From an uncultured Francisellaceae bacterium (GTDB taxonomy: Bacteria; Pseudomonadota; Gammaproteobacteria; Berkiellales; Berkiellaceae), in assembly GCA_964433995.1 (NCBI GenBank), contig CAYSTH010000001.1, positions 1 through 61,605 of the forward strand: DNA of 61,605 nt, read 5' to 3'. The first letter of the stretch is position 1. The number at the start of each line of letters is the position of its first letter. The notes under the pieces were generated by a model, which was given only the letters and a program-made list of their open reading frames with translations, was not told the origin of the DNA and ran no database searches. A program made the position numbers and the translations under genes. Shown piece after piece: positions 8,387 through 52,845 of the stretch.

Positions 8387-10510
8387 TCAATTCATCTGAC
8401 TGTTTTTTTTGGGTGGATGCCAATCTAAAGGATAAACGCTTTTTTCTATAGAACTATGTAATTCAACTAAGGGAAGTGGTTTACTAAAAAAATACCCTTG
8501 TATATAATCTGCTTCCATTTCTTTTAATATATTGTATTGATCAACGTTTTCAACCCCTTCAACCACCAAACGCATATCTAATGTTTTTGCCATTAAAATA
8601 ATACTTTTTATCATACTTTTAAGTTTTGTTTGAGTTAAGATATTGGTGATAAAGCTTCTATCTATTTTTAGATAACTAAACGGAAAATGATGCAACGTAC
8701 TCAAACTGGAATATCCTGTTCCAAAATCATCTATTGCAATTTGAATGCCTTTTTTTCTTAATTCTTCTAAAATATACAATTCTGAATCAGAATGTTTCAA
8801 TAAAACAGATTCAGTGACTTCTACTTTTATATTTTGATAACTTAAGAAATTTTCTTTAATCGCACGTTCTATCTCAAAAATAATCTCATTGTTTTCTAAT
8901 TGTTTAGCGGATACATTAATACATATATACCAATTTTCTTCTGGTTTGTATTTTTCTATTAATTTAGCCAGCGTTTCACATGATTGTTGAATAACAAAAT
9001 TACCTAGTTCTACAATCATGTCACTTTCTTCCGCAATAGGAATAAATTGCTCCGGAGAAACAAATCCTAATTCGGGGTGATGCCATCTTAACAATGCTTC
9101 AAAACCAGCGATTTGGCCATTTTCTGCTAAAACGATGGGTTGATAAAATACACTAAATTGCTTTTTATTTAGTGCTGATTTCAAGTTGTTAGAAATACGA
9201 AATTTCTTCTGAGCTTCTTCTCTTAAATCATTATCATAAAATACAAACCGACTTTTTCCCGATTTTTTTGCATGATATAAAGCAATATCGGCATCTCTGA
9301 ATATTTCATCGGAAGAGATGTAAGGCGATGTTTTATTGCACCATACTATCCCCATACTGACTGAGGGATTAATTAAATACTCTTGTATTTTAATAGGCGA
9401 GGTCAACACACTTGCCATACGCGTAATCATCATATGAAAAGAATGTTTATCTACAGGTTTTTGTATAATGACAGCGAATTCATCGCCACCTAAGCGTGAA
9501 ACCGTATCGGTATTTCTTACAATACTAGCTAAAGATTTTCCGACATGAATTAATAATTTATCCCCAACAGGATGTCCCATCGAATCATTAATATACTTAA
9601 AATTATCTAAATCAAATAATACTAAAGCAAAATCTTCAGACACAGCGCGTTTAAATCTAAGTAATGCTTGCTGTAATCTGTCATTTAACAAATTTCTATT
9701 TGGTAATTTAGTTAAAAAATCATGCATGGCATCATGCACCAATTGCTCTTCTATTTTTTTATTTTTTTCAATATCACTTTGAGCGCCCACCATCCTCACA
9801 GGCTGATCATTTGAATTCACCAAGGTGACCCATTTTGAAACAAACCATAAATACTGACCATTTTTATGCAGTAATCTATATTCACATTGGTAATTTTTTT
9901 CAACATTACTTTTAAGTGATTCTTCAATGTGATACAAAAGTTTTTCACAGTCTTCTGGATGCACTCGTTGAAGCCACATTTCTTTGCTTTCTTCTAATTC
10001 TGTTTCTTCAAAGCCTATCATCTGATTCCATCTTTTAGAAAAAAATACCCGACCTGAAGAAATATCCCAATCCCACAATCCATCATTTGAACCTTTTGCC
10101 GCCAATGCATATCTTTCTTCTCGAAGAGCAACATCTTCCGTGACCCTTTTGAGCGTTCGCTGATGTTCTTTATATTGTTTATCTATTAGTTCTTGTGATG
10201 TTTTAGTCACAAAATTCATTTGTGTCTCATAGTGAGCAGTAAGCCATTCGATAGAATTCTTACTGGTAAGGTAAGGACGAATAACAAAATAAAAAATCAA
10301 TGGTACCGAAACTAGTACTAATAAAAATGCATCTAAATAAACTGCCGCTGTTGATATCATCAGTGGTTGTAAATAGGGTAAAACAAACATGATTGAGCCT
10401 TCTACCAGACATTCAATCAGGGCAATTTTAATCATAATTTGAATAATTTCTTTGCGCGAAAAAATCATGAGTAGGCCCCCTATCAATGGATTTATCGATA
10501 GGGAACTCAT
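8387..10510 (-). CDS. Membrane-anchored PAS-GGDEF-EAL c-di-GMP turnover protein
   Basis: 707-aa ORF with hydrophobic N-terminal segments, a PAS-like block (NDGLWDWD...RVHPED), an intact GGDEF (RLGGDEFAV), an intact EAL (FEALLRW) and DDFGTGYSS. Confidence 0.9.
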   Translation of the reverse strand: MSSLSINPLIGGLLMIFSRKEIIQIMIKIALIECLVEGSIMFVLPYLQPLMISTAAVYLDAFLLVLVSVPLIFYFVIRPYLTSKNSIEWLTAHYETQMNFVTKTSQELIDKQYKEHQRTLKRVTEDVALREERYALAAKGSNDGLWDWDISSGRVFFSKRWNQMIGFEETELEESKEMWLQRVHPEDCEKLLYHIEESLKSNVEKNYQCEYRLLHKNGQYLWFVSKWVTLVNSNDQPVRMVGAQSDIEKNKKIEEQLVHDAMHDFLTKLPNRNLLNDRLQQALLRFKRAVSEDFALVLFDLDNFKYINDSMGHPVGDKLLIHVGKSLASIVRNTDTVSRLGGDEFAVIIQKPVDKHSFHMMITRMASVLTSPIKIQEYLINPSVSMGIVWCNKTSPYISSDEIFRDADIALYHAKKSGKSRFVFYDNDLREEAQKKFRISNNLKSALNKKQFSVFYQPIVLAENGQIAGFEALLRWHHPELGFVSPEQFIPIAEESDMIVELGNFVIQQSCETLAKLIEKYKPEENWYICINVSAKQLENNEIIFEIERAIKENFLSYQNIKVEVTESVLLKHSDSELYILEELRKKGIQIAIDDFGTGYSSLSTLHHFPFSYLKIDRSFITNILTQTKLKSMIKSIILMAKTLDMRLVVEGVENVDQYNILKEMEADYIQGYFFSKPLPLVELHSSIEKSVYPLDWHPPKKNSQMN

Positions 10511-16744: not shown

Positions 16745-17665
16745 ATGCCTAAACTAAGTGATATAGTATACAAATTCATACCTCATTTTTTTTGGGCAAT
16801 GCTGTTGTGTCTTTTTCATACAGGAATAGCTAATGCTAATAATGGACTAGATAACATGAAAGCACCCCACATACCTTTACTCGTAACAGATGCAACAGCC
16901 GATCAAACCTTGCCGAATAAGCTCCGAATTCTACCTCATTATCATGGCATTGCTGGAATAGTCGGTTCTGCCCAATTTAATGAAATGGGTTTGGCTGCCA
17001 TTGTATCAAAAATTCAAGCTCATCATCCCAAGAAAAAAATATGGTTAGTTGATTTGCGTCAAGAAACCCATTTTTTTGCCAATGGTCAACCTTTAAGCTT
17101 TTATGGCTATCATAATAGTGCCAATATTGAAAAATCTTCTGCACAAATTCTTGAAGAAGAATCTAAAGTTATTTCAGATTTTCAACATAAATCTGAACCC
17201 ACAATTGTTAACTTAGTGGTGGATAAAAAGAACGGTGAAATCACTAAAACTCGTCCTGTTCAAATGAATTTACAAACAAGTGAGTCTGAAGAAAGCTTAG
17301 CTAAAAAACATGGCTTAGCTTACAAAAGATTTTACATAACCGATCATAAAGCGCCCACTCCTGAAGCTCAAAAAGAACTTGTCACTTTTATCAATCAACT
17401 CGATGCAGATGATTGGGTCATTGTACACTGCCGAGGCGGAAAGGGTCGCACCACAACTTTTATGTTACTCACTGCAATATTAAAAGACAGAGAACAACAC
17501 AAAGTAAAATCTGTTCAAGAATATATTGAAGAACAAATTAGCTTAGGCGGCACAAACTTGTTTAACACAGATGACGGTGATGATGCTCTTTGGCAAAAAG
17601 AAAATAAAAAACACCGTGCTAAATTTATAGAACAATTTTACTCTGAGAGTAACCGTGGTCATTGA
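16745..17665 (+). CDS. PTP-like cysteine phytase / inositol-phosphate phosphatase with an N-terminal signal peptide
   Basis: 306-aa ORF. It has the CX5R P-loop HCRGGKGRTT and an upstream VDLRQETHFFANG motif typical of PTP-like phytases. The N-terminus is hydrophobic (FFWAMLLCLFHTGIANA). Confidence 0.75.
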   Translation: MPKLSDIVYKFIPHFFWAMLLCLFHTGIANANNGLDNMKAPHIPLLVTDATADQTLPNKLRILPHYHGIAGIVGSAQFNEMGLAAIVSKIQAHHPKKKIWLVDLRQETHFFANGQPLSFYGYHNSANIEKSSAQILEEESKVISDFQHKSEPTIVNLVVDKKNGEITKTRPVQMNLQTSESEESLAKKHGLAYKRFYITDHKAPTPEAQKELVTFINQLDADDWVIVHCRGGKGRTTTFMLLTAILKDREQHKVKSVQEYIEEQISLGGTNLFNTDDGDDALWQKENKKHRAKFIEQFYSESNRGH

Positions 17666-41204: not shown

Positions 41205-41375
41205 ACCATTTTTTCTCATTTTAAGTACGGTATTTTATAAAGTTGGTAGGCGCTCTAAAATCCCCTCTACCAAAGCGAGCATGTTTTTTACCCTCATCCG
41301 GCCTTTCAGGCCACCTTCTCCCGCTACCACTCGCTAACGCTCCTTGCGGTAGAAGGGATAAAGCCACATCGTGCT
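41205..41375. repeat. GC-rich composite repeat (short copy) inside the yejA-yejB intergenic region
   Basis: Its reverse complement matches the ends of the element at ~46010-46290. Shared segments are ggctttRtcccttctaccgYaaggagc, gcgagtggYWRcgggagaaggtggcc.gaaggccgga and gctcgctttggtagagggga. Boundaries are approximate. Confidence 0.75.
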
Positions 41376-44583: not shown

Positions 44584-45372
44584 ATGGATCTTGATCATAG
44601 TGAAGACATAAAGGCACGTGGCACTGATAGATTTCAGAAACAAATACGTGCCGAAAAAATAGAGCCTATCAAAATCTCTAAAAGACTAGATAAGGCTCTG
44701 AATCAGACTAAATACCGAAATACTGCGGCTAAAGAAGATACGGTTAAATATGATATAGCTGAAGGTCTTTCTGAAAAATTACATCATCTAACTTTAGAAG
44801 AAGAATATCGTCTAGTAGAACAGCGTGACTTTGAATTATATGGTCCTTATTATGAACCGTCTGATGATAGTAGCTCACACTTCTCTTTTGGTTCTAGTTC
44901 TGGTGAAGAGGATGAATTCAGTGGCGACAATCGACCTCACACTCAAGAGTTCTCTGATTCTGAAGAAAGTTATTATTCTCAGGAAACGTCTTACTCTGGA
45001 GAATTATCAGATTCTTCAGACCACTTTGATGGTTTTTGCTTTAACTCCACTCTCAAAGATAAAATTGTTGAAGAAAAACAAAACCAAAAACCTTGTGATT
45101 TAACTGATGAAAAAAATGTGCATAAAAATAAAAGTCACAAAAGCTATCTTTCACATCAAAAAGATAAACAAGAGTTGGTTAACAAAAAAGTGTTAGCTTT
45201 TGCATTTAGTGGGGTACACCGAAAAGGCGGGCATCACAGTAGATTTGTATATAATATTGGCCGTGAAGAAAAGCGTATTTTGGATACTTATCAACAATCA
45301 ATAAACCCTATTGAGATTGCAGAACAACCAAAAGAACGTGCTCGAGATATCAATAAAAGATGTAAAAAATAA
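44584..45372 (+). CDS. Hypothetical acidic Ser/Glu/Asp-rich, likely disordered protein
   Basis: 262-aa ORF starting 30 nt after fabI. It has a central low-complexity block (EPSDDSSSHFSFGSSSGEEDEFSGD..SDSEESYYSQETSYSGELSDSSD) and a basic C-terminus, and is followed by a strong hairpin terminator. Confidence 0.6.
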   Translation: MDLDHSEDIKARGTDRFQKQIRAEKIEPIKISKRLDKALNQTKYRNTAAKEDTVKYDIAEGLSEKLHHLTLEEEYRLVEQRDFELYGPYYEPSDDSSSHFSFGSSSGEEDEFSGDNRPHTQEFSDSEESYYSQETSYSGELSDSSDHFDGFCFNSTLKDKIVEEKQNQKPCDLTDEKNVHKNKSHKSYLSHQKDKQELVNKKVLAFAFSGVHRKGGHHSRFVYNIGREEKRILDTYQQSINPIEIAEQPKERARDINKRCKK

Positions 45373-45387
45373 TCGTTTATCCCTATT

Positions 45388-45418
45388 CCGCCCATACTGT
45401 AAAATATGGGCGGTTTTT
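45388..45418 (+). terminator. Rho-independent terminator
   Basis: 9-bp stem ccgcccata/tatgggcgg with an 8-nt loop and a T-run, 16 nt after the stop at 45372. Confidence 0.8.
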
Positions 45419-45426
45419 AATTTTAT

Positions 45427-45470
45427 AAATCCCCCCGCCGCTTCGCGTCGCCCCCCTTTTTCAAAGTGGG
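45427..45470. repeat. Short copy of the aaatccccccg...ccccctttt..caaag.ggg GC-rich element
   Basis: It shares the aaatccccccg start and the ccccc(c)ttt..caaagNggg core with the longer element at 50790-50880. Confidence 0.55.
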
Positions 45471-45505
45471 TAAAAGTGAGTAAAGAGAGATTAGTAAAAA
45501 AATGA

Positions 45506-45844
45506 TTAATACAAAATGTTTGTTGTATTGGTCGTATAGCTCGCCAACCCGCTTAATCCCCCAATTAGCATAGATGCACCCATATTATGGGTTAAAGCAG
45601 GCATATTCTGCGTAAAACCGCCCCCTAACATGCCGCATGCAAGCCCTACCACTAAAGATGGATTTAACATTAAAGGCTGTGCGACAAAATTCAGCGTATT
45701 ACGTACTAACATACTTCCTAAAGCACCTGCAAAAGCACTGGCTGCAAAATCATAGGAGATTTTAGCGGCAAGCACAGTTAAGACTGCTTCCATGCCTAAA
45801 CCACCAGCCACTTGTGTTGAATCGTTTATTGAAATACTTTTCAT
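45506..45844 (-). CDS. Double-glycine-leader peptide precursor (class II microcin/bacteriocin-like), Gly-rich hydrophobic core
   Basis: 112-aa ORF with the leader MKSISINDSTQVAGG| and a ~97-aa hydrophobic core containing GxxxG-type motifs (GALGSML, GLACGMLGGG, LIGGLSGLA). Confidence 0.6.
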   Translation of the reverse strand: MKSISINDSTQVAGGLGMEAVLTVLAAKISYDFAASAFAGALGSMLVRNTLNFVAQPLMLNPSLVVGLACGMLGGGFTQNMPALTHNMGASMLIGGLSGLASYTTNTTNILY

Positions 45845-46009
45845 GATAATTGATGCCTTATATTAAAAATTAAAAGTAAATATTTAAAAAATATTGAGAG
45901 ATGATTATATAGAGCTGATTAACTTTATTTAATTTGTTAACTATGCCGGTAATCGATGGTAATCGACCGTTTATCGGGGGTTTTGTGCTACAAAGATACT
46001 CACTATTTG

Positions 46010-46290
46010 GCACAATATGGCTTTGTCCCTTCTACCGTAAGGAGCATAAGCGAGTGGCTACGGGAGAAGGTGGCCGAAGGCCGGACCTGCCAAGCCGAAG
46101 CTTTGAAGCGTAGGCTGGTGAGGGCAAAAAAATGATTTCACTTTTCCTCTGCCCTCACCCGTCTTGGCCGCTAACGCGATGGCCAATCCACCCTCTCCCA
46201 TGCGCTCGCTTGCTCGCTTTGGTAGAGGGGACTTTGATAGATCGTGCCAACTTTTGTAAAATACCCACTTAAGATGCGAGGGACTGTCAG
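46010..46290. repeat. GC-rich composite repeat (long copy)
   Basis: Same termini as the 41205-41375 element in inverted orientation, plus ~100 nt of extra internal GC-rich sequence. It accounts for the spurious ORF 46058-46306. Boundaries are approximate. Confidence 0.75.
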
Positions 46291-46369
46291 AGCGACAGGC
46301 TGACATGACATTTTTAAGATGTCACTCTGTAAAAAAAATTTTACAGTTTAAATCGAATACACAAAAATA

Positions 46370-46663
46370 TTAATTACTTGTCATATTCAATGTTAATTCT
46401 GGCATCTTTACTGATGTATCAACAACTGGCAAATGAACTCCTAGGTTTTTAGAACCTCTTTGAAGATCGTAAGCAATTTGAATACCCATTGCGATCATCA
46501 TTAAGGGTGCTGCATATTCCATAGGAATATTCAAAACAGGCATCTCACCACTTACTTTAATCAAACATTGTGAGCTATTGCTCACTACATCATATATAGA
46601 TAATAAACATTGGCTGTATCCACCAGAGACTTGTTCTAATTGAGTTGTTGTTATGGTCTTCAT
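46370..46663 (-). CDS. Double-glycine-leader peptide precursor (class II microcin/bacteriocin-like)
   Basis: 97-aa ORF with the textbook GG leader MKTITTTQLEQVSGG|YSQC... The core has two Cys and a hydrophobic stretch (AAPLMMIAMGIQIAY). Confidence 0.6.
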   Translation of the reverse strand: MKTITTTQLEQVSGGYSQCLLSIYDVVSNSSQCLIKVSGEMPVLNIPMEYAAPLMMIAMGIQIAYDLQRGSKNLGVHLPVVDTSVKMPELTLNMTSN

Positions 46664-46957
46664 CTTTGTAACCTCTAATCCAAGAATATGAAAAATATTA
46701 AGTTGTCATTTTATACAATCAACTTATGTAATTTAACTTATTAACCATACCGTTTATCTCCAAAATACAACCGTTCGTCATCGATTTAAACCGTTTGGTC
46801 CATTATTTTTATGATTTTGTCGATCTGTAAATACACATAACAGGCACACAGTGGGTACTTAGCTTAAACTTTTAGAGAGATCAAGCGATAACACAACTAC
46901 CTAATTTAGTTTAGGAAGTGTTCATTTTTATAGTTGTATACAATGTTGGAGATTATT

Positions 46958-47251
46958 ATGAAGTCTAAAATCCTAATGGCGATTTCTATTGCAGCAGCTC
47001 TTTCCGCTAACACTGCTTTTGCAGCTGATGAAATGATGGATAAATGCAAAGTCGTTAAAGATGGCAAAGGAATGATCAAAGCCAACAAAGCTGACTGTGC
47101 TGGTACAAGCCATGCTTGCGCTGGTCAAAACAAAGCTGGCGATGCTGAATCTTGGATCAAAGTGCCAAAAGGACAGTGTGAAAAAATTAATGCTGGTGAT
47201 TTTAGCGGCGTAAGCAAAGAAGTCAAAGAAAAAATCGAAGGCGCAAAATAA
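46958..47251 (+). CDS. bufA: DUF2282-type secreted Cys-containing precursor peptide (bufferin-type RiPP precursor)
   Basis: I trimmed to the ATG at 46958, which is preceded by GGAGA. The Sec signal is MKSKILMAISIAAALSANTAFA|A. The core is DKCKVV..KADCAGTSHACAGQNK..ESWIKVPKGQCEKI (4 Cys). Confidence 0.75.
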   Translation: MKSKILMAISIAAALSANTAFAADEMMDKCKVVKDGKGMIKANKADCAGTSHACAGQNKAGDAESWIKVPKGQCEKINAGDFSGVSKEVKEKIEGAK

Positions 47252-47280
47252 TCATTATTTAAAAATATTAATGGATTAAT

Positions 47281-48138
47281 ATGACTTTGAATCAACTAAT
47301 TGGTATAGGCCTTAGGCATCCTCATTATCATGAGGTTATCGATAGTCAACCTGGTATTGGTTGGTTCGAAGTTCACAGCGAAAACTTTTTTCATTTAGGC
47401 GGTCCTAGCCTTAATGCCCTTAAAACAATCCGAGCATCTTACCCAATTAGCTTACATGGCGTGGGTTTATCATTGGGATCTGCAGATAAATTAGATGTAG
47501 ATCATCTTAAAAAAATAAAAAAACTTATTCGAGAAATTGATCCTTTTTTAGTTTCTGAACATTTATCTTGGGGAAAAATCAATAACACATTTTTACCGGA
47601 CTTATTGCCTTTACCTTATACCCAAGAAAGCTTAAGTGTGATTTCTCAAAACATTCAACAAACTCAAGATTATCTGCAACGTGAAATATTAATAGAAAAC
47701 CCCTCTTCATACCTAGAATATCAAGATTCTGAACTTGATGAAGCCGACTTTATAGTTAAATTATGCCAAAAATCTGGCGCTAAACTTTTATTAGACATTA
47801 ATAATATTTTTGTTTCTGCTCACAATCATCAATGGGACGCTAAAAAATATATCAATAGCATTCCTGGCGATTTGGTAAAAGAGTTACATTTAGCTGGTCA
47901 TTCTCATAAAGCTTTATCTGAACAAAAAATAATTAAAGTCGACACGCATAATAATAAAGTATGCGAAGAAGTGTGGGAACTTTATATTTATAGCTTGACA
48001 CATTTTGGTTTAAAACACACTCTCATAGAATGGGATGCCGATATTCCTGAATTAAGTGTTTTATTAGAAGAAGCACAAAAAGCTAAAACATATTGTGAGT
48101 TAAACTTAGTGCAGCAGCAAGCTCATGCAAAAGCTTAA
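47281..48138 (+). CDS. bufB: DUF692 / MNIO (multinuclear non-heme iron oxidative) enzyme
   Basis: 285-aa ORF with GIGLRHPHY, GWFEVHSENFF, YPISLHGVGLSLGS, LVSEHLSW, ENPSSY and LLLDINN, which fit the UPF0276/DUF692 pattern. Confidence 0.85.
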   Translation: MTLNQLIGIGLRHPHYHEVIDSQPGIGWFEVHSENFFHLGGPSLNALKTIRASYPISLHGVGLSLGSADKLDVDHLKKIKKLIREIDPFLVSEHLSWGKINNTFLPDLLPLPYTQESLSVISQNIQQTQDYLQREILIENPSSYLEYQDSELDEADFIVKLCQKSGAKLLLDINNIFVSAHNHQWDAKKYINSIPGDLVKELHLAGHSHKALSEQKIIKVDTHNNKVCEEVWELYIYSLTHFGLKHTLIEWDADIPELSVLLEEAQKAKTYCELNLVQQQAHAKA

Positions 48139-48892
48139 AGATATTCAACATGATTTTACTCATAGTTTATTTCAAACCGACAAGATACCTGTTTCTGATT
48201 TTATTGCGTCTGATTATGCTAGTGAGCGTCTGAATATTTACAGACAAACGATTATACAAAATTTACGCCAAGCCCTTGCCATTACCTACCCTGGTATTTG
48301 GCACTTACTCGGTGATGAATGTGCCGATAGCGTGGCTTATGCTTATATAAATAATATAAACAATTTTCCCATTTCTGGGTGTCTAGATGATTGGGGTATA
48401 AGTTTTGCTGAATTTTTAGAACAACAGCCAGAATTAATAACATTACCTTATCTTAAAGACTATGCTCACTATGAATGGCTAAAACATTTGGCTTATGGGC
48501 AAGCTGATAGCGATTATTTAACTTATGATAAGTTAACAACATTATCTGAAAATGAATTAACCAATGCTATTTTTTATTTTCACCCTACTGTTTATTTTAT
48601 GCAGTCTGTTTTTCCATTGGATAATATTTTAAATATTATTGAAAATCCTGATAGCGAAAAATTACATTTAACCAAACAAAACACTTATGCTCTTATTGCT
48701 AGACCTGAAAACAATGTGATAACTTATTGGCTTTCTGAAGATTATTATGTATTTTTTGATGATTTAAAAAAAGGATTATCGTTTGGATTATCTATAGAAA
48801 AAGCAGAAAAAAAATATTCTGATTTTAACTTATCGGAAATAATAACTTTTTTAATCGAAAATAAGCTTATTTCTCACATTTCTTATGCCTAA
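48125..48892 (+). CDS. bufC: DUF2063-family partner protein of the MNIO enzyme
   Basis: 255-aa ORF overlapping the DUF692 gene by 14 nt. The N-terminal segment (ERLNIYRQTIIQNLRQALAITYPGIWHLLGDE) fits the DUF2063 pattern. Confidence 0.75.
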   Translation: MQKLKDIQHDFTHSLFQTDKIPVSDFIASDYASERLNIYRQTIIQNLRQALAITYPGIWHLLGDECADSVAYAYINNINNFPISGCLDDWGISFAEFLEQQPELITLPYLKDYAHYEWLKHLAYGQADSDYLTYDKLTTLSENELTNAIFYFHPTVYFMQSVFPLDNILNIIENPDSEKLHLTKQNTYALIARPENNVITYWLSEDYYVFFDDLKKGLSFGLSIEKAEKKYSDFNLSEIITFLIENKLISHISYA

Positions 48893-49049
48893 ATTTAAAG
48901 CGTGTACTTAAACATCTAAAAAATACGATTACCTACACTTATGAACACTGTTATCTCTTGCTAGATTCATTTCATCGGTTATTTGTTGTCATTCCTTGAC
49001 CTGCATAGTAGACTGCCTTTTTTTAACTTTAAATACACAGGATATTTCA

Positions 49050-49856
49050 ATGGATAACCCAATTCAAACAGAACGAAATGATCAATTGCGCTCTGCGGCA
49101 GAAGCAGGTATTACGACTGAAATAATCACCCAACTCCAAAATGGGGCAAATATAGAAGCAATGGACCACGATGGTTGGACTGCACTCATGTTCGCCTGTT
49201 TTCATAACCACGCGCCCGTTGTCGAATTATTACTTCAAAAAAAAGCTAACCTAGAACACAAATCTCACAACAATTGTACGCCACTCATCGTTGCTTGTAT
49301 GAAAGGTTGGACTGAAATTGTTAAACTCTTAGTCCAAAACAATGTCAACATTGAGGAAAAAGATAATGAGGGTATGACACCACTTATGTGGGCTTCTTAT
49401 TATGGCCATTATGATATAGTTGATCTTTTAATTCAAAAAAATGCCAATACACTAGCCACCAATCATCTCGGCGAGACTGCACAAGATATTGCCTTGTTTA
49501 AACGGAATGATACATTTTATCAATTATTCCGTACATTAACAGAACAAGAGCGCAAAAATTTTGGAAGTAAAAGTATAAGAAATATCCAGCTTTATACGAG
49601 ATTTATAAAATGGTCTGAAGAGAACCCCCAAAAAAAACAAGATACTTCTGATTTAACACTACAAATACCTACCGTTATTTTTTCTGAAGAACCCAAGCAC
49701 AAAAGTTGTAGTGACATGATAATTGAAGGCTTTATTGCTGCAAAAGAAGGGGTTTTTAATCTTTTTAATACAAAAAGAAAGAGAGAAAACAAAGAGGAAA
49801 ATGAACAAAATCAAGATGGATATGGAAATCCTAACAAAAAGGCAAAGCTAAACTAA
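49050..49856 (+). CDS. Ankyrin-repeat protein with a C-terminal bipartite-NLS-like tail
   Basis: I trimmed from a TTG to the ATG at 49050 (AGGA lies 8 nt upstream). ANK repeats are present (DGWTALMFACFHNHAPVVELLLQKKANLE, NCTPLIVACMKGWTEIVKLLVQNNVNIE, GMTPLMWASYYGHYDIVDLLIQKNAN). The tail is KRKRENKEENEQNQDGYGNPNKKAKLN. Confidence 0.85.
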   Translation: MDNPIQTERNDQLRSAAEAGITTEIITQLQNGANIEAMDHDGWTALMFACFHNHAPVVELLLQKKANLEHKSHNNCTPLIVACMKGWTEIVKLLVQNNVNIEEKDNEGMTPLMWASYYGHYDIVDLLIQKNANTLATNHLGETAQDIALFKRNDTFYQLFRTLTEQERKNFGSKSIRNIQLYTRFIKWSEENPQKKQDTSDLTLQIPTVIFSEEPKHKSCSDMIIEGFIAAKEGVFNLFNTKRKRENKEENEQNQDGYGNPNKKAKLN

Positions 49857-49949: not shown

Positions 49950-50768
49950 TTAAGAATTAAATTTATTTCGCCGAATTATTTCAGGAGATACATCCATTCT
50001 TTCTTCTGAATGAGCATTTGCTGCAACCATATTTATTTGAGAAAAAACGAGAGGTGCTGTATGTAATGGAAGTTCAGCTGCTTCAAAAACTTTCATTCCA
50101 ATGCGCTCTGGATCAAATATATTAAAAAATGTTTCTAATTGCTCTGGTGTTAATGCATTAAGCAACAAAGATATTATTTCTTTTTTAGATTTTTTGCCAT
50201 AAACTGACCTAAGGGCTGAATATCCATACGCATGGCCTGCGTCTTGATCTACCCCTTTTTGAAGCAGTAATTTAACTATTTCTAATTTATCATTCTGAGC
50301 AGCTTGAATCAGTGGTGTCAAACCAAAAAGATTTTTGGCATTAATATCTACACCGACTTCTTCGATTAGGCCAGTCACAACCATAACATGACCTAGTCGA
50401 ACATGTTCAATGAGCAAATCTTCGAGCGCATATTGCTCTATTTCTTTACGTCTTTGCTCAAGCACGGGATCAAGCTTAAAGCAGGGAGCTTTTGTAAGAT
50501 GTTCATCTAAAATAAAATTTGTGTTTTGATTTTTAACACCTTTTTCGATTAATAAATCGACAATTTTCTGGTGTTGATTCCAATGAGCTAACTGGAAAGC
50601 TGTTAACCCTAAAACATTATGCGCGTTGATATCAGCTTTAGCTTCTTTAATCAGTCCTTTTACTGTCATAAAATGACCATCTCTAGCAAATGCTGTAAAG
50701 AATTCGGTAAGCTGTTTTTCTTCTAATGTTTTATATTCTCGAGCGACAGTTGTAGCAGGTGCGTCCAT
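49950..50768 (-). CDS. Ankyrin-repeat protein
   Basis: 272-aa ORF with ANK-like units (GLTAFQLAHWNQHQKIVDLLIEKGV, GLTPLIQAAQNDKLEIVKLLLQKGVDQD). It has no NLS-like tail. Confidence 0.8.
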   Translation of the reverse strand: MDAPATTVAREYKTLEEKQLTEFFTAFARDGHFMTVKGLIKEAKADINAHNVLGLTAFQLAHWNQHQKIVDLLIEKGVKNQNTNFILDEHLTKAPCFKLDPVLEQRRKEIEQYALEDLLIEHVRLGHVMVVTGLIEEVGVDINAKNLFGLTPLIQAAQNDKLEIVKLLLQKGVDQDAGHAYGYSALRSVYGKKSKKEIISLLLNALTPEQLETFFNIFDPERIGMKVFEAAELPLHTAPLVFSQINMVAANAHSEERMDVSPEIIRRNKFNS

Positions 50769-50789: not shown

Positions 50790-50880
50790 AAATCCCCCCG
50801 TCTGGCTACGCTGAAGCTACGCCAAGACGGCCCCCTTTGGCATCAAAGGGGCGCGCGAGCAAAACGAGCGGGGGGATTTA
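50790..50880. repeat. GC-rich palindromic element with terminal inverted repeats aaatccccccg / cggggggattt
   Basis: It has internal sub-palindromes (cccctttg gcat caaagggg; cgtctgg...ccaagacg). It fills the gap between the ppiD stop (50878-50880) and the start of the ankyrin gene. Confidence 0.75.
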
Positions 50881-52845
50881 TACTTTTTCTTTATCCGTTT
50901 CAGGCTTGCTATTTTCTAACAAATTTTTGACATTCGATGTTTTGAGTACATGCTCTATCAGCAAGTTAAATTCAACCTGACCTAAAGAACTAGCATAGCT
51001 TTTCATAAAGGCAGGATTTTGAATTTGGCTATCATCTTTGCCATCGATAATATTGCTTGCAGTCACTAAAGCAAAGTCACCATTAGATAACTCAGCTGTT
51101 TTGGCTTGTAATTTATTTTTATTTTTGTCTGTTGGCTTAGGTAAGCTAAATGCTGTTTGTGCTATAGCAGGATCTATGCCCATTTTCGCACCAGGGAAAT
51201 AGCGTGTTTCTTCTACTTCTTTGCGTACTAGTCCTTTTTTAGACTGAACAGACAGATTATTTGCCTGAGCGACTTGTTGTAAAGTTTTGCCGGCCTCTAA
51301 CTCAGCTGTCATTTTTGAGGCTAATGCTTTAGCCTGCTTTTGTGCTTCTTCAGAAGTTAAATAGGTCACAATATCGTTTTTAACCGTTTCTAATGGCTTT
51401 TGTTTCGCAGGAATATGTTGATTCACCCGAACAACGACATATGTTTTGTCATCTAATTTAATAAGCTCACTGTTATGCTTATCTTGCAAAACTTCAGCAC
51501 TAAACGCGGCTTTGAGCAACTTAGGATTTTTAAATAGCTCTTTAGGATCTTCTTGAGAAAATACATCGGTCTGAGCAATCTTCAACTTAAATTTATCGGC
51601 AATAGGCTGAAGTGAATCAGGTTGTTCATAAGCCAAGGTAGATATTTCATCTCCAACTTGACTGATTTGTTCATCAGACTTATGTTCAATAAATTGTGTT
51701 TTTAATTGTTCCTTGACTAAATTAAAAGACTCATGAGATTCGGGAAATTTTTCAAGCAATTTAATAATGTGTATACCAAATTGTGTACGCACTAAACCTG
51801 ATAATTCACCCTGTTTATTCATTGCAAAAACCGCTTTTTCGAATTCAGGAACCATTTCACCTTTACCAAAGGTTCCTAACTCTCCACCATTTTTACCCGA
51901 ACCTGTATCATCAGAATAAGTTTGAGCCAGTTTTTTGAAATCTTCGCCTGCTTTTAATTTAGCAAGTAGCTCTTTGGCTTTTTGTTCTACTTTTTGTGTA
52001 TCTTCTTTGCTTGCATCTTCAGGCAGAGCCAATAATATATGTGCTGCTTTGACTCTTTCTGGTTGAGTATACTGCGCAATATTTTTTTGATAAAAAGCTT
52101 TTAGATCTTCTTCTGTTGGTTTAATTTCTTTTTTGAAATCGGCAGTATTTAAGACAAGATAATCGAACGACGCTTTTTCGTCTGTCACAAAATCTTCAGC
52201 ATGCGCCTTGTAGTAAGCATCAATGCTTTCTGGCGTAATTTTAATCTCTTTAGTAAATCGAGAAGCTGGGATGACAACGTAATCAACATCTCTTTTTTGC
52301 TCAATAAACTTAATAAGCGTTTTGGCTTCTGGCGCTAGTGAAAAATTACTATATACAATGCCTTTCTGAAGTTGGTTAACCAAGATATTTGTTCGGATTT
52401 CAGATTTGAAAGCCTCTAAAGTGTAACCCATTCCTTTAAGAAATTGATTTAACCTTTCTGGTGAGTAAACACCCTCTTCTTGAAATTCGGGTATTGTTTT
52501 CAAAAGTTGATCTAACGTGCTGTTACTCACACGTAAGCCCATGTCTTCGGTTTTGTATTGAAGCGCTTTTACTTCGATAAGATTTTGAAGGGCAACTTGT
52601 TTTAAATAGTTGACGTCAATTTCGAGTTCGGGATTTTGCATGGCTTGTTGACGCTGTAAACGCTCTACCAGCGTATCTAGCTCAGCCATCGTGATTTTAT
52701 CGCCATTTACTTCTGCAGCTGCTTGACCCTTAGGATTTAGGCCTAGCCTATCTCCCACGCCCCACATCACAAAAGTAATGGCAATCATGCCCAAAATTAT
52801 CCAAGCAACCCAACCTTGTGCCTTTTCACGAATATTTTGCAACAT
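50878..52845 (-). CDS. ppiD: Periplasmic chaperone / peptidyl-prolyl isomerase PpiD
   Basis: I trimmed from a TTG to the ATG at 52845 (MLQNIREKAQGWVAWIILGMIAITF, an N-terminal TM anchor; GAGGGA SD). It has a parvulin-like block (VKAAHILL...FGIHIIKL) and the conserved lon-hupB-ppiD neighbourhood. Confidence 0.88.
   Translation of the reverse strand: MLQNIREKAQGWVAWIILGMIAITFVMWGVGDRLGLNPKGQAAAEVNGDKITMAELDTLVERLQRQQAMQNPELEIDVNYLKQVALQNLIEVKALQYKTEDMGLRVSNSTLDQLLKTIPEFQEEGVYSPERLNQFLKGMGYTLEAFKSEIRTNILVNQLQKGIVYSNFSLAPEAKTLIKFIEQKRDVDYVVIPASRFTKEIKITPESIDAYYKAHAEDFVTDEKASFDYLVLNTADFKKEIKPTEEDLKAFYQKNIAQYTQPERVKAAHILLALPEDASKEDTQKVEQKAKELLAKLKAGEDFKKLAQTYSDDTGSGKNGGELGTFGKGEMVPEFEKAVFAMNKQGELSGLVRTQFGIHIIKLLEKFPESHESFNLVKEQLKTQFIEHKSDEQISQVGDEISTLAYEQPDSLQPIADKFKLKIAQTDVFSQEDPKELFKNPKLLKAAFSAEVLQDKHNSELIKLDDKTYVVVRVNQHIPAKQKPLETVKNDIVTYLTSEEAQKQAKALASKMTAELEAGKTLQQVAQANNLSVQSKKGLVRKEVEETRYFPGAKMGIDPAIAQTAFSLPKPTDKNKNKLQAKTAELSNGDFALVTASNIIDGKDDSQIQNPAFMKSYASSLGQVEFNLLIEHVLKTSNVKNLLENSKPETDKEKV

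Follow-up and report, generated by a model that had tools for sequence, protein, structure and literature searches.

A probable Buf1-type bufferin operon without DoxX at a conserved chromosomal site of an uncultured, ankyrin-rich gammaproteobacterium

The stretch of DNA studied here, all 61,605 nucleotides of contig CAYSTH010000001.1 from an uncultured gammaproteobacterium (in the following, the window), carries at positions 46958-48892 three co-directional, closely packed genes. With a probability which we put at about 0.8, they represent a functional biosynthetic operon, bufABC, for a bufferin (captophorin) of the Buf1 type. This reading is favoured by the combination of intact genes, the three defining protein families, a coupled gene arrangement and purifying selection. 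A bufferin-type cluster for a ribosomally synthesized and post-translationally modified peptide (RiPP) had been proposed for this locus in a preliminary description of the window, and the proposal is supported wherever in silico checks apply. The operon and its upstream region are composed of the elements listed below; L001 is the nearest genome, which is metagenome-assembled and labelled uncultured Gammaproteobacteria RBC015.

46899-46934, plus strand: candidate promoter/operator based on conservation, with the dyad CCTAA-N6-TTAGG at 46900-46915 followed by the -10-like hexamer TATAGT at 46929-46934
46948-46951, plus strand: ribosome-binding site GGAG, read from the sequence, 6 nt before the bufA ATG and kept in L001
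46958-47251, plus strand: bufA, open reading frame (ORF) of 97 aa
46958-47023, plus strand: Sec signal peptide of BufA, residues 1-22 (MKSKILMAISIAAALSANTAFA), by inspection, with cleavage predicted between AFA and AD
47024-47251, plus strand: BufA core peptide, 75 aa plus stop, with the DUF2282 match and conserved Cys
47281-48138, plus strand: bufB, ORF of 285 aa, multinuclear non-haem iron oxidase (MNIO, DUF692) maturase, by PF05114 and NCBIfam MNIO_BufB
48125-48892, plus strand: bufC, ORF of 255 aa, DUF2063 partner (PME type 1) with an RRE-like C-terminal domain, by PF09836 and by AlphaFold (AF2) modelling and Foldseek

The ORF list agrees exactly with the three tightly spaced genes as they were first described. 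A gap of 29 nt separates bufA from bufB, and the overlap of 14 nt reported between bufB and bufC was confirmed; both spacings are kept in the sister locus of L001. An in-frame TTG further upstream, at 46934, is an unlikely start of bufA, given the GGAG located 6 nt before the ATG. The families DUF2282, DUF692/MNIO and DUF2063, named earlier from sequence motifs, were all recovered by significant matches in Pfam profile searches: BufA to DUF2282 (PF10048; E = 5.4e-14, 52.3 bits, gathering cut-off 22.4), BufB to MbnB_TglH_ChrH/DUF692 (PF05114; E = 1.4e-101, 340 bits), and BufC to DUF2063 (PF09836; E = 1e-15, 58.2 bits). In addition, BufB exceeds the cut-off of the NCBIfam equivalog model MNIO_BufB (NF050167; 370.2 vs 310 bits) and scores under every cut-off of the HvfB, ApyH, ChrH and MbnB models. 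Judged by its sequence, the locus is a Buf1-type bufferin cluster which current annotation pipelines (NCBI models) would name unaided.

No frameshifts or internal stops were found in bufABC, and the three reading frames are intact. The possibility of a frameshift or premature stop, raised in the preliminary description, is thus not borne out, and identical BufB and BufC were assembled independently in a Logan contig (L081, run SRR36362383). On this contig, the identical genes bear the newer Pfam labels BufA1 and HvfC_N.

BufA is characterized by a K-rich MKSK start, a 13-residue hydrophobic core (Kyte-Doolittle maximum 2.67) and an AxA site before ADE, all recognized by inspection. This N-terminal segment, with its cleavage motif, is the only hydrophobic one in the protein, and in 69 homologues it is variable in sequence with hydrophobicity kept. 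Precursor residues Cys30, Cys47, Cys54 and Cys74 correspond to Cys8, Cys25, Cys32 and Cys52 of the core (CysI to CysIV). In the alignment of the window sequence with the 69 homologues, which come from 80 related loci, the four Cys, G38 and the motifs DC and CAG are at least 90% conserved, and vPkG.C is partly conserved at 60-90% (70 aligned sequences). All four Cys are invariant in the 47 closer sequences, and the central pair sits in a DC...C(A/S)G context. The 97-aa length, the four Cys and the signal-peptidase site between AFA and AD, as initially reported, therefore hold, the signal peptide by inspection, and all sequence motifs quoted at that time are present in the proteins.

A PDB sequence search with BufA gave no significant match. 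The AF2 model, built from 47 sequences, reaches a predicted local distance difference test score (pLDDT) of 70, which is moderate confidence. The model has strands (residues 27-30, 67-70) and a helix (73-78). CysI and CysIV are found where structured elements end, and a loop of low confidence holds CysII and CysIII. As modelled, BufA is compatible with the published beta-sheet facing a thiooxazole loop.

BufB holds every residue that is at least 95% conserved among 82 aligned sequences (81 homologues and the window), including H32, H59, H94, E139, D172, N175, H203, D221, H223, E250 and D252. The nearest solved structure is the MNIO 3bww (PDB search, E = 1.9e-33). For BufC, the PDB sequence search disclosed no significant match and fold comparison was needed. 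The full-length AF2 model (pLDDT 90.4) was matched by Foldseek to TglI, the partner of the MNIO TglH (8hi7_A; E = 4.5e-6, template modelling (TM) score 0.60), and to the DUF2063 protein NGO1945 (3dee; E = 1e-4, TM 0.54/0.67), with weaker matches to MbnC (E = 0.43) and the RRE protein TbiB1. These model-based matches to TglI and NGO1945 indicate for BufC a role as MNIO partner rather than as transcription factor.

Comparison with L001 provides a measure of selection and of the age of the operon. The order fabI, an ORF of unknown function, two double-glycine-leader peptides, bufABC and ppiD is common to the window and L001, where FabI and PpiD of the window are named from synteny and from Pfam hits on record for L081. 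Synonymous sites are near saturation between the two (dS, substitutions per synonymous site, 1.0-1.9). The ratio of nonsynonymous to synonymous rates (dN/dS) is 0.037 for bufA (92% amino-acid identity), 0.148 for bufB (71%) and 0.184 for bufC (56%), and the reference genes fabI and ppiD have values of 0.041 and 0.059. The bufABC genes are under purifying selection, and BufA is constrained like the essential enzyme FabI; the operon is therefore not a relic. An earlier statement located it in a repeat-rich accessory stretch. The peptide and ankyrin neighbours are as described there, but the fabI-ppiD site of the operon is conserved in L001, and therefore the operon does not lie in a variable accessory stretch. 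It is not recently acquired accessory DNA, and the ankyrin pair downstream alone is lineage-specific.

The founding, biochemically characterised Buf1 bufferin is that of Caulobacter vibrioides (bufA1B1C1D1, CCNA_03363-03366; PMC11626156). The window operon is alike in that its precursor, of the DUF2282 family, bears a Sec signal peptide as well as four Cys and is followed by the MNIO and the DUF2063/RRE protein in the same order. Spacing of Cys in the core is also similar (Cys8/25/32/52 in the window, compared with CysI = Cys12 and CysIV = Cys52 in Buf1). Unlike the C. vibrioides cluster, the window has no bufD (DoxX) and no adjacent sigF/nrsF, its precursor is extended by 6 aa inserted after CysI and by a conserved tail of about 20 aa at the C-terminus, and its host is low in GC and rich in ankyrin genes. 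Among the features of Buf1 clusters, a DUF2282 precursor in the range of 80-120 aa, four Cys, a signal peptide (by inspection), a BufB-type MNIO and a DUF2063 partner are all present in the window. DoxX (BufD), which is frequent but optional in the family, is missing from its 61.6 kb.

In C. vibrioides, two modifications of -4 Da each, for which BufB1 and BufC1 are both required and suffice, convert CysII and CysIII to 5-thiooxazoles; a disulfide links CysI and CysIV, and cleavage of the signal peptide takes place where predicted (PMC11626156). The periplasmic product binds Cu2+ with a dissociation constant of ~ 6e-15 M and Cu+ with one of ~ 7e-20 M, and cells are protected from copper (PMC11626156). 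The 5-thiooxazole chemistry has since been generalised to MNIO-PME1 (MNIO/DUF2063) clusters, whose products are termed captophorins (10.1101/2025.11.18.689057).

By analogy with this system, BufB of the window would act as a multinuclear non-haem iron oxidase to which the RRE-like domain of BufC would present the BufA substrate, and Cys47 and Cys54 would be converted to 5-thiooxazoles in the cytoplasm by four-electron oxidation. BufA would then be exported by the Sec route and cut by signal peptidase after AFA (residue 22), and the outer Cys30 and Cys74 would form a disulfide. The mature periplasmic product of 75 residues has a predicted monoisotopic mass of 7856.76 Da, compared with 7866.84 Da for the unmodified core (a difference of 10.08 Da). 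By chelating Cu(I)/Cu(II) through S and N atoms of the thiooxazoles, the product would buffer copper in excess, a plausible benefit in the phagosomes of amoebae. DoxX, absent from the window, is dispensable in the model system.

Bufferins were initially taken to be known only from free-living bacteria, and this does not stand. The GIG operon of Legionella pneumophila, lpg2105-2108, was described in 2017 and encodes DoxX, DUF2063, DUF692 and DUF2282 proteins of 165, 259, 284 and 97 aa; copper and gold act as inducers of its promoter (PMC5413113). In the published record, L. pneumophila subsp. fraseri has the most bufferin clusters per genome, with 5 Buf1, 7 MNIO, 6 DUF2063 and 3 DoxX, and amoebal engulfment and copper in innate immunity have already been discussed as the rationale (PMC12452194). 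Compared by published sizes, GIG proteins of 97, 284 and 259 aa are near the 97, 285 and 255 aa of the window. GIG differs in carrying DoxX and in its location on the mobile element ICE-beta-ox, unlike the window operon, which is chromosomal and lies between fabI and ppiD. A paralogue of GIG, H3 (lpg2253-2255), is a three-gene form without DoxX present in 5/5 strains surveyed (PMC5413113), and thus has the same arrangement as the window in an amoeba-associated host. Orthologues in L. anisa share with the window 65% (BufA), 58% (BufB) and 41% (BufC) identity and belong to the same low-GC BufB clade.

Outside Legionella, the gig operon (gold-induced genes) of Cupriavidus metallidurans has the same core of DUF2282, MNIO and DUF2063 and is metal-induced. 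It differs from the window in having four genes, including DoxX, and in being of the high-GC mainstream BufA1 type without insertion or tail (compare L058 and related loci). Oxazolin/HvfABC of Haemophilus, gonophorin of Neisseria and fontiphorin are Lys-Cys-repeat captophorins with which the window has the MNIO and DUF2063 (PME1) pair in common. They are associated with 5-thiooxazole chemistry and copper, and the structures 3bww and 3dee come from these systems. Their precursors consist of EGKCG-type repeats instead of DUF2282, whereas BufA of the window has no Lys-Cys repeats. BufB and BufC score below the HvfABC cut-offs (241 vs 360 bits for HvfB and 45 vs 142 bits for HvfC). Methanobactin (MbnABC) models are likewise not reached, with 56.8 vs 325 bits for MbnB and a weak match to MbnC, and BufA, with 97 aa and a predicted Sec-exported type, is unlike the short MbnA precursor. 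The operon is an ordinary member of the bufferins, with both intracellular-type hosts and the DoxX-less form already published, and the role in copper defence in the vacuole has already been stated by the field as a hypothesis.

The lack of DoxX and of regulatory genes next to the operon, pointed out in the preliminary description, was confirmed within the following limits. A tblastn search of the whole 61.6-kb window with three Pfam-verified DoxX proteins revealed no DoxX-like sequence (best E = 0.64), and none of the five flanking ORFs scanned matched sigma or anti-sigma families in Pfam. Sigma/NrsF pairs are present in only some Buf1 clusters. The view that a cluster without DoxX is unusual had to be given up. 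The search with BufB retrieved 80 loci. Contig ends truncate 8 of them, which leaves 72 informative ones; DoxX is adjacent in 54/72, a DoxX-like ORF is located elsewhere in the locus in 4/72, and none was found in 14/72, in a stretch of ~ 6-7.5 kb downstream (less than 1 kb in L055). The three-gene H3 locus of L. pneumophila adds a published case, and C. vibrioides needs DoxX neither for the modification nor for protection against copper (PMC11626156). The position of DoxX in most relatives, which in the window is that of the ankyrin genes, is occupied in L001 by an msrB gene (9625-10167, plus strand) starting 19 nt after bufC; it encodes a 180-aa MsrB (SelR, E = 8e-39) with an N-terminal signal-like sequence. 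An MsrB remnant was looked for at the position of the ankyrin genes in the window and none was found. MsrB-like ORFs in four other loci are several kb away from the buf clusters.

Regulation was addressed by comparing the divergent intergenic region between the gene for the 97-aa leader peptide and bufA (window 46664-46957, L001 7383-7657). A block located ~ 25-100 nt before the bufA start is kept between the two despite near-saturated synonymous sites, and its dyad and TATAGT hexamer are a candidate operator/promoter. In the same region, a stretch of ~ 30 nt, TATTTAACTTATTAACCATACCGTTTATC (~ 46729-46757), is almost identical in L001. A generic scan for sigma-70 promoters and terminators gave no more sites than shuffled sequence and did not call the block upstream of bufA. 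An operator common to the low-GC clade was also considered and rejected, as dyads are found 52-61 nt upstream in several loci with differing sequences, and only those of the window and L001 agree. The Rfam scan of the whole window at gathering thresholds detected only tRNAs, and with permissive settings 45350-47000, including the region upstream of bufA, produced only sub-threshold matches at chance level. From bufC to the first of the ankyrin genes no clear terminator is present, and the two may be co-transcribed.

The BufB sequences of the window and L001 group, in a tree built by neighbour joining, within a clade comprised exclusively of low-GC loci (0.31-0.45). Its members include Legionella anisa, another Legionella species and a Legionellaceae metagenome-assembled genome, together with assemblies labelled Gammaproteobacteria, Rickettsiales, Anaplasmataceae or Alphaproteobacteria; the tree is a rapid, distance-based one, and the taxonomic labels on the clade assemblies are unreliable. 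DUF2282 precursors of the clade share the 6-residue insertion after CysI (KVVKDG in the window) and a conserved C-terminal tail of ~ 20 residues, INAGDFSGVS..KxKIE, both absent from the high-GC mainstream. A search of the full library yielded BufA relatives in 259 clusters at 50% identity, 56 of them with E <= 1e-10, and among the best 150 relatives listed roughly fifty align through the tail.

The occurrence of one clade across classes suggests horizontal exchange among host-associated bacteria, which we take as a lead and not as a result; it fits the location of GIG on an integrative conjugative element in L. pneumophila (PMC5413113). It is rather unlikely that the window operon belongs to a distinct, horizontally exchanged Buf1 sub-lineage specialised for life inside eukaryotic hosts. 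If it did, the tail or the insertion could give another metal preference, another partner or a phagosome-specific role. The variable gene after bufC (mostly DoxX, a secreted MsrB in L001, an ankyrin gene here) could then reflect tuning to the host niche.

Some BufB relatives lack a DUF2282 precursor. In L036, L060, L074 and L075 (~ 7576-7970 in each), low-GC relatives of BufB are preceded by lipoprotein-type precursors with repeated HKC/NKC (Lys-Cys) motifs, and DUF2282 is absent. No DUF2282 precursor was detected by tblastn in L013-L016, L018, L020 and L021; these seven loci have no convincing Cys-rich ORF upstream, and short ones in L014, L015 and L018 are probably spurious. Several of the assemblies in which BufB relatives occur without DUF2282 carry implausible labels (Rickettsia typhi, Rhizobium sp.).

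Other genes of the window relevant to the setting of the operon are the following:

44584-45372, plus strand: Ser/Asp/Glu-rich ORF of 262 aa between fabI and the peptide genes, with no family match and a short stretch conserved in L001
45506-45844, minus strand: ORF for a peptide with a double-glycine-type leader (MKSISINDSTQVAGG before L) and a Gly/Ala-rich hydrophobic core
46370-46663, minus strand: ORF for a 97-aa peptide with a double-glycine-type leader (MKTITTTQLEQVSGG before Y) and two Cys conserved in L001
3043-4080, 25341-27944, 28026-29366, 33419-36595 (weak), 48996-49856 and 49950-50768: ankyrin-repeat ORFs, by Pfam
16745-17665: PTP-like phytase/dual-specificity phosphatase

Both leader peptides are conserved in L001 (56-60% identity, dN/dS 0.20-0.24), and neither has a match in Pfam or NCBIfam. 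No C39-peptidase ABC exporter was found among the large ORFs scanned in the window. A functional link of the peptides with the buf genes was tried as a candidate and rejected, since a survey by tblastn and a leader regular expression (3,548 small ORFs in 80 loci and the window) found the leaders in the window and L001 only. A strong terminator-like hairpin follows the 262-aa ORF at 45388-45413.

The 61.6 kb encode at least five clear ankyrin-repeat proteins and one weak one (33419-36595). Two ORFs are very large: that at 33419-36595 has a weak ankyrin match only, and that at 30221-33370 has no family match. The unusual density of ankyrin genes, together with the phosphatase, is effector-like and typical of amoeba-associated bacteria; it is consistent with a host-associated lifestyle and no proof of it, and the label intracellular rests mainly on the many ankyrin-repeat genes. 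The gene order tig-clpP-clpX-lon...ppiD is gammaproteobacterial, and the nearest named ClpX proteins are those of Candidatus Berkiella/Berkiellales (82-83% identity), Candidatus Berkiella being associated with amoebae. Since unrelated marine Gammaproteobacteria reach 81-82%, ClpX gives a loose placement only.

GC-rich repeats are of two kinds. One is dispersed and stands out from the 35% GC background, with a copy near the peptide genes that is apparently split by an insertion (46010-46085 and 46211-46279) and further copies between oligopeptide-transporter genes (41214-41374) and between msrB and ppiD of L001 (10213-10284). It looks like a miniature mobile element, with no match to an Rfam family. 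The other is an inverted pair of 38 nt (45424-45461 and 50845-50882), 71% complementary, with the core AAATCCCCCCGC and a third copy of the core at 50790-50801. The pair brackets 5.4 kb comprising the peptides, bufABC and both ankyrin genes. Its interpretation as ends of a mobile element was rejected, because L001 has the operon in the corresponding place and the motif resembles a dispersed repeat.

Several points weigh against assigning to the window a functional Buf1-type operon. Modification, export and metal binding of its BufA are all extrapolated by analogy, and the structural model of the precursor is of moderate confidence (pLDDT 70). The insertion and tail of the subclade could make affinity or metal preference different, and the neighbourhood contains neither a regulator responsive to copper, nor a sigma/anti-sigma pair, nor any further copper gene. 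The same biosynthesis could in principle be directed at another target, such as Zn, Cd, Au, Hg or Ag, or serve in defence against oxidative or chlorine stress in the host vacuole, which we consider improbable. It draws on the response of gig operons to several metals including gold, cadmium and copper, on MerC-bufferin fusions that point to roles with other metals, on the hint of an oxidative-stress link from msrB, 19 nt after bufC on the same strand in L001, and on the insertion and tail of the subclade, which could alter specificity. However, all MNIO-PME1 products tested to date bind copper, the motifs of the metal-binding CysII/CysIII loop (DC...CAG) are unchanged, and the adjacency of msrB was seen in one genome only, the MsrB-like ORFs of four other loci being several kb away.

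It is very improbable that the double-glycine-leader peptides are extra substrates of the MNIO and its partner, forming a composite locus with two products, for which the peptide at 46370-46663 would be the main candidate. Both peptides do adjoin bufABC in the window and L001, the 97-aa peptide keeps both Cys in L001, and multi-substrate MNIO enzymes as well as precursors without signal peptide are known in the superfamily. Against this, the remaining 79 loci have no such peptide beside the buf cluster, and the peptide genes, encoded on the other strand, evolve much faster (dN/dS 0.20-0.24, identity 56-60%). Their leaders imply export by a C39-peptidase ABC system, a route unrelated to bufferin maturation, and BufB matches maturases of the DUF2282 type at the equivalog level. 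If older annotations were right, the locus would have no RiPP chemistry; its products would be a small integral membrane protein, a TIM-barrel enzyme of unrelated function and a transcription regulator that binds DNA. This is hardly credible, although 'Predicted integral membrane protein' and 'Putative DNA-binding domain' persist in the Pfam description lines: experiment has overtaken them through in vitro reconstitution of the family (PMC11626156), and the newer Pfam names are BufA1 and HvfC_N. The single N-terminal hydrophobic segment of BufA has a cleavage motif, and the BufC model matches MNIO partners. A decaying remnant in a host-restricted genome, from which no product is made, is suggested by the missing DoxX and by ankyrin gene insertions and dispersed GC-rich repeats in the flanks. 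It is extremely unlikely in view of intact reading frames with all conserved catalytic residues present, dN/dS of 0.04-0.18 at near-saturated dS with BufA constrained like FabI, and the identical locus assembled from an independent run.

With this locus, a bufferin family of thousands of members gains another operon. Its modest value is comparative: in an uncultured lineage of ankyrin-rich Gammaproteobacteria, a Buf1 operon that lacks DoxX has a fixed place on the chromosome. The constraint on BufA agrees with the published proposal that bacteria withstand copper inside phagocytes with the help of bufferins. The low-GC subclade, spread across genomes of Legionellales and Rickettsiales-like assemblies, could offer in its 6-aa insertion and C-terminal tail a natural variant for testing.

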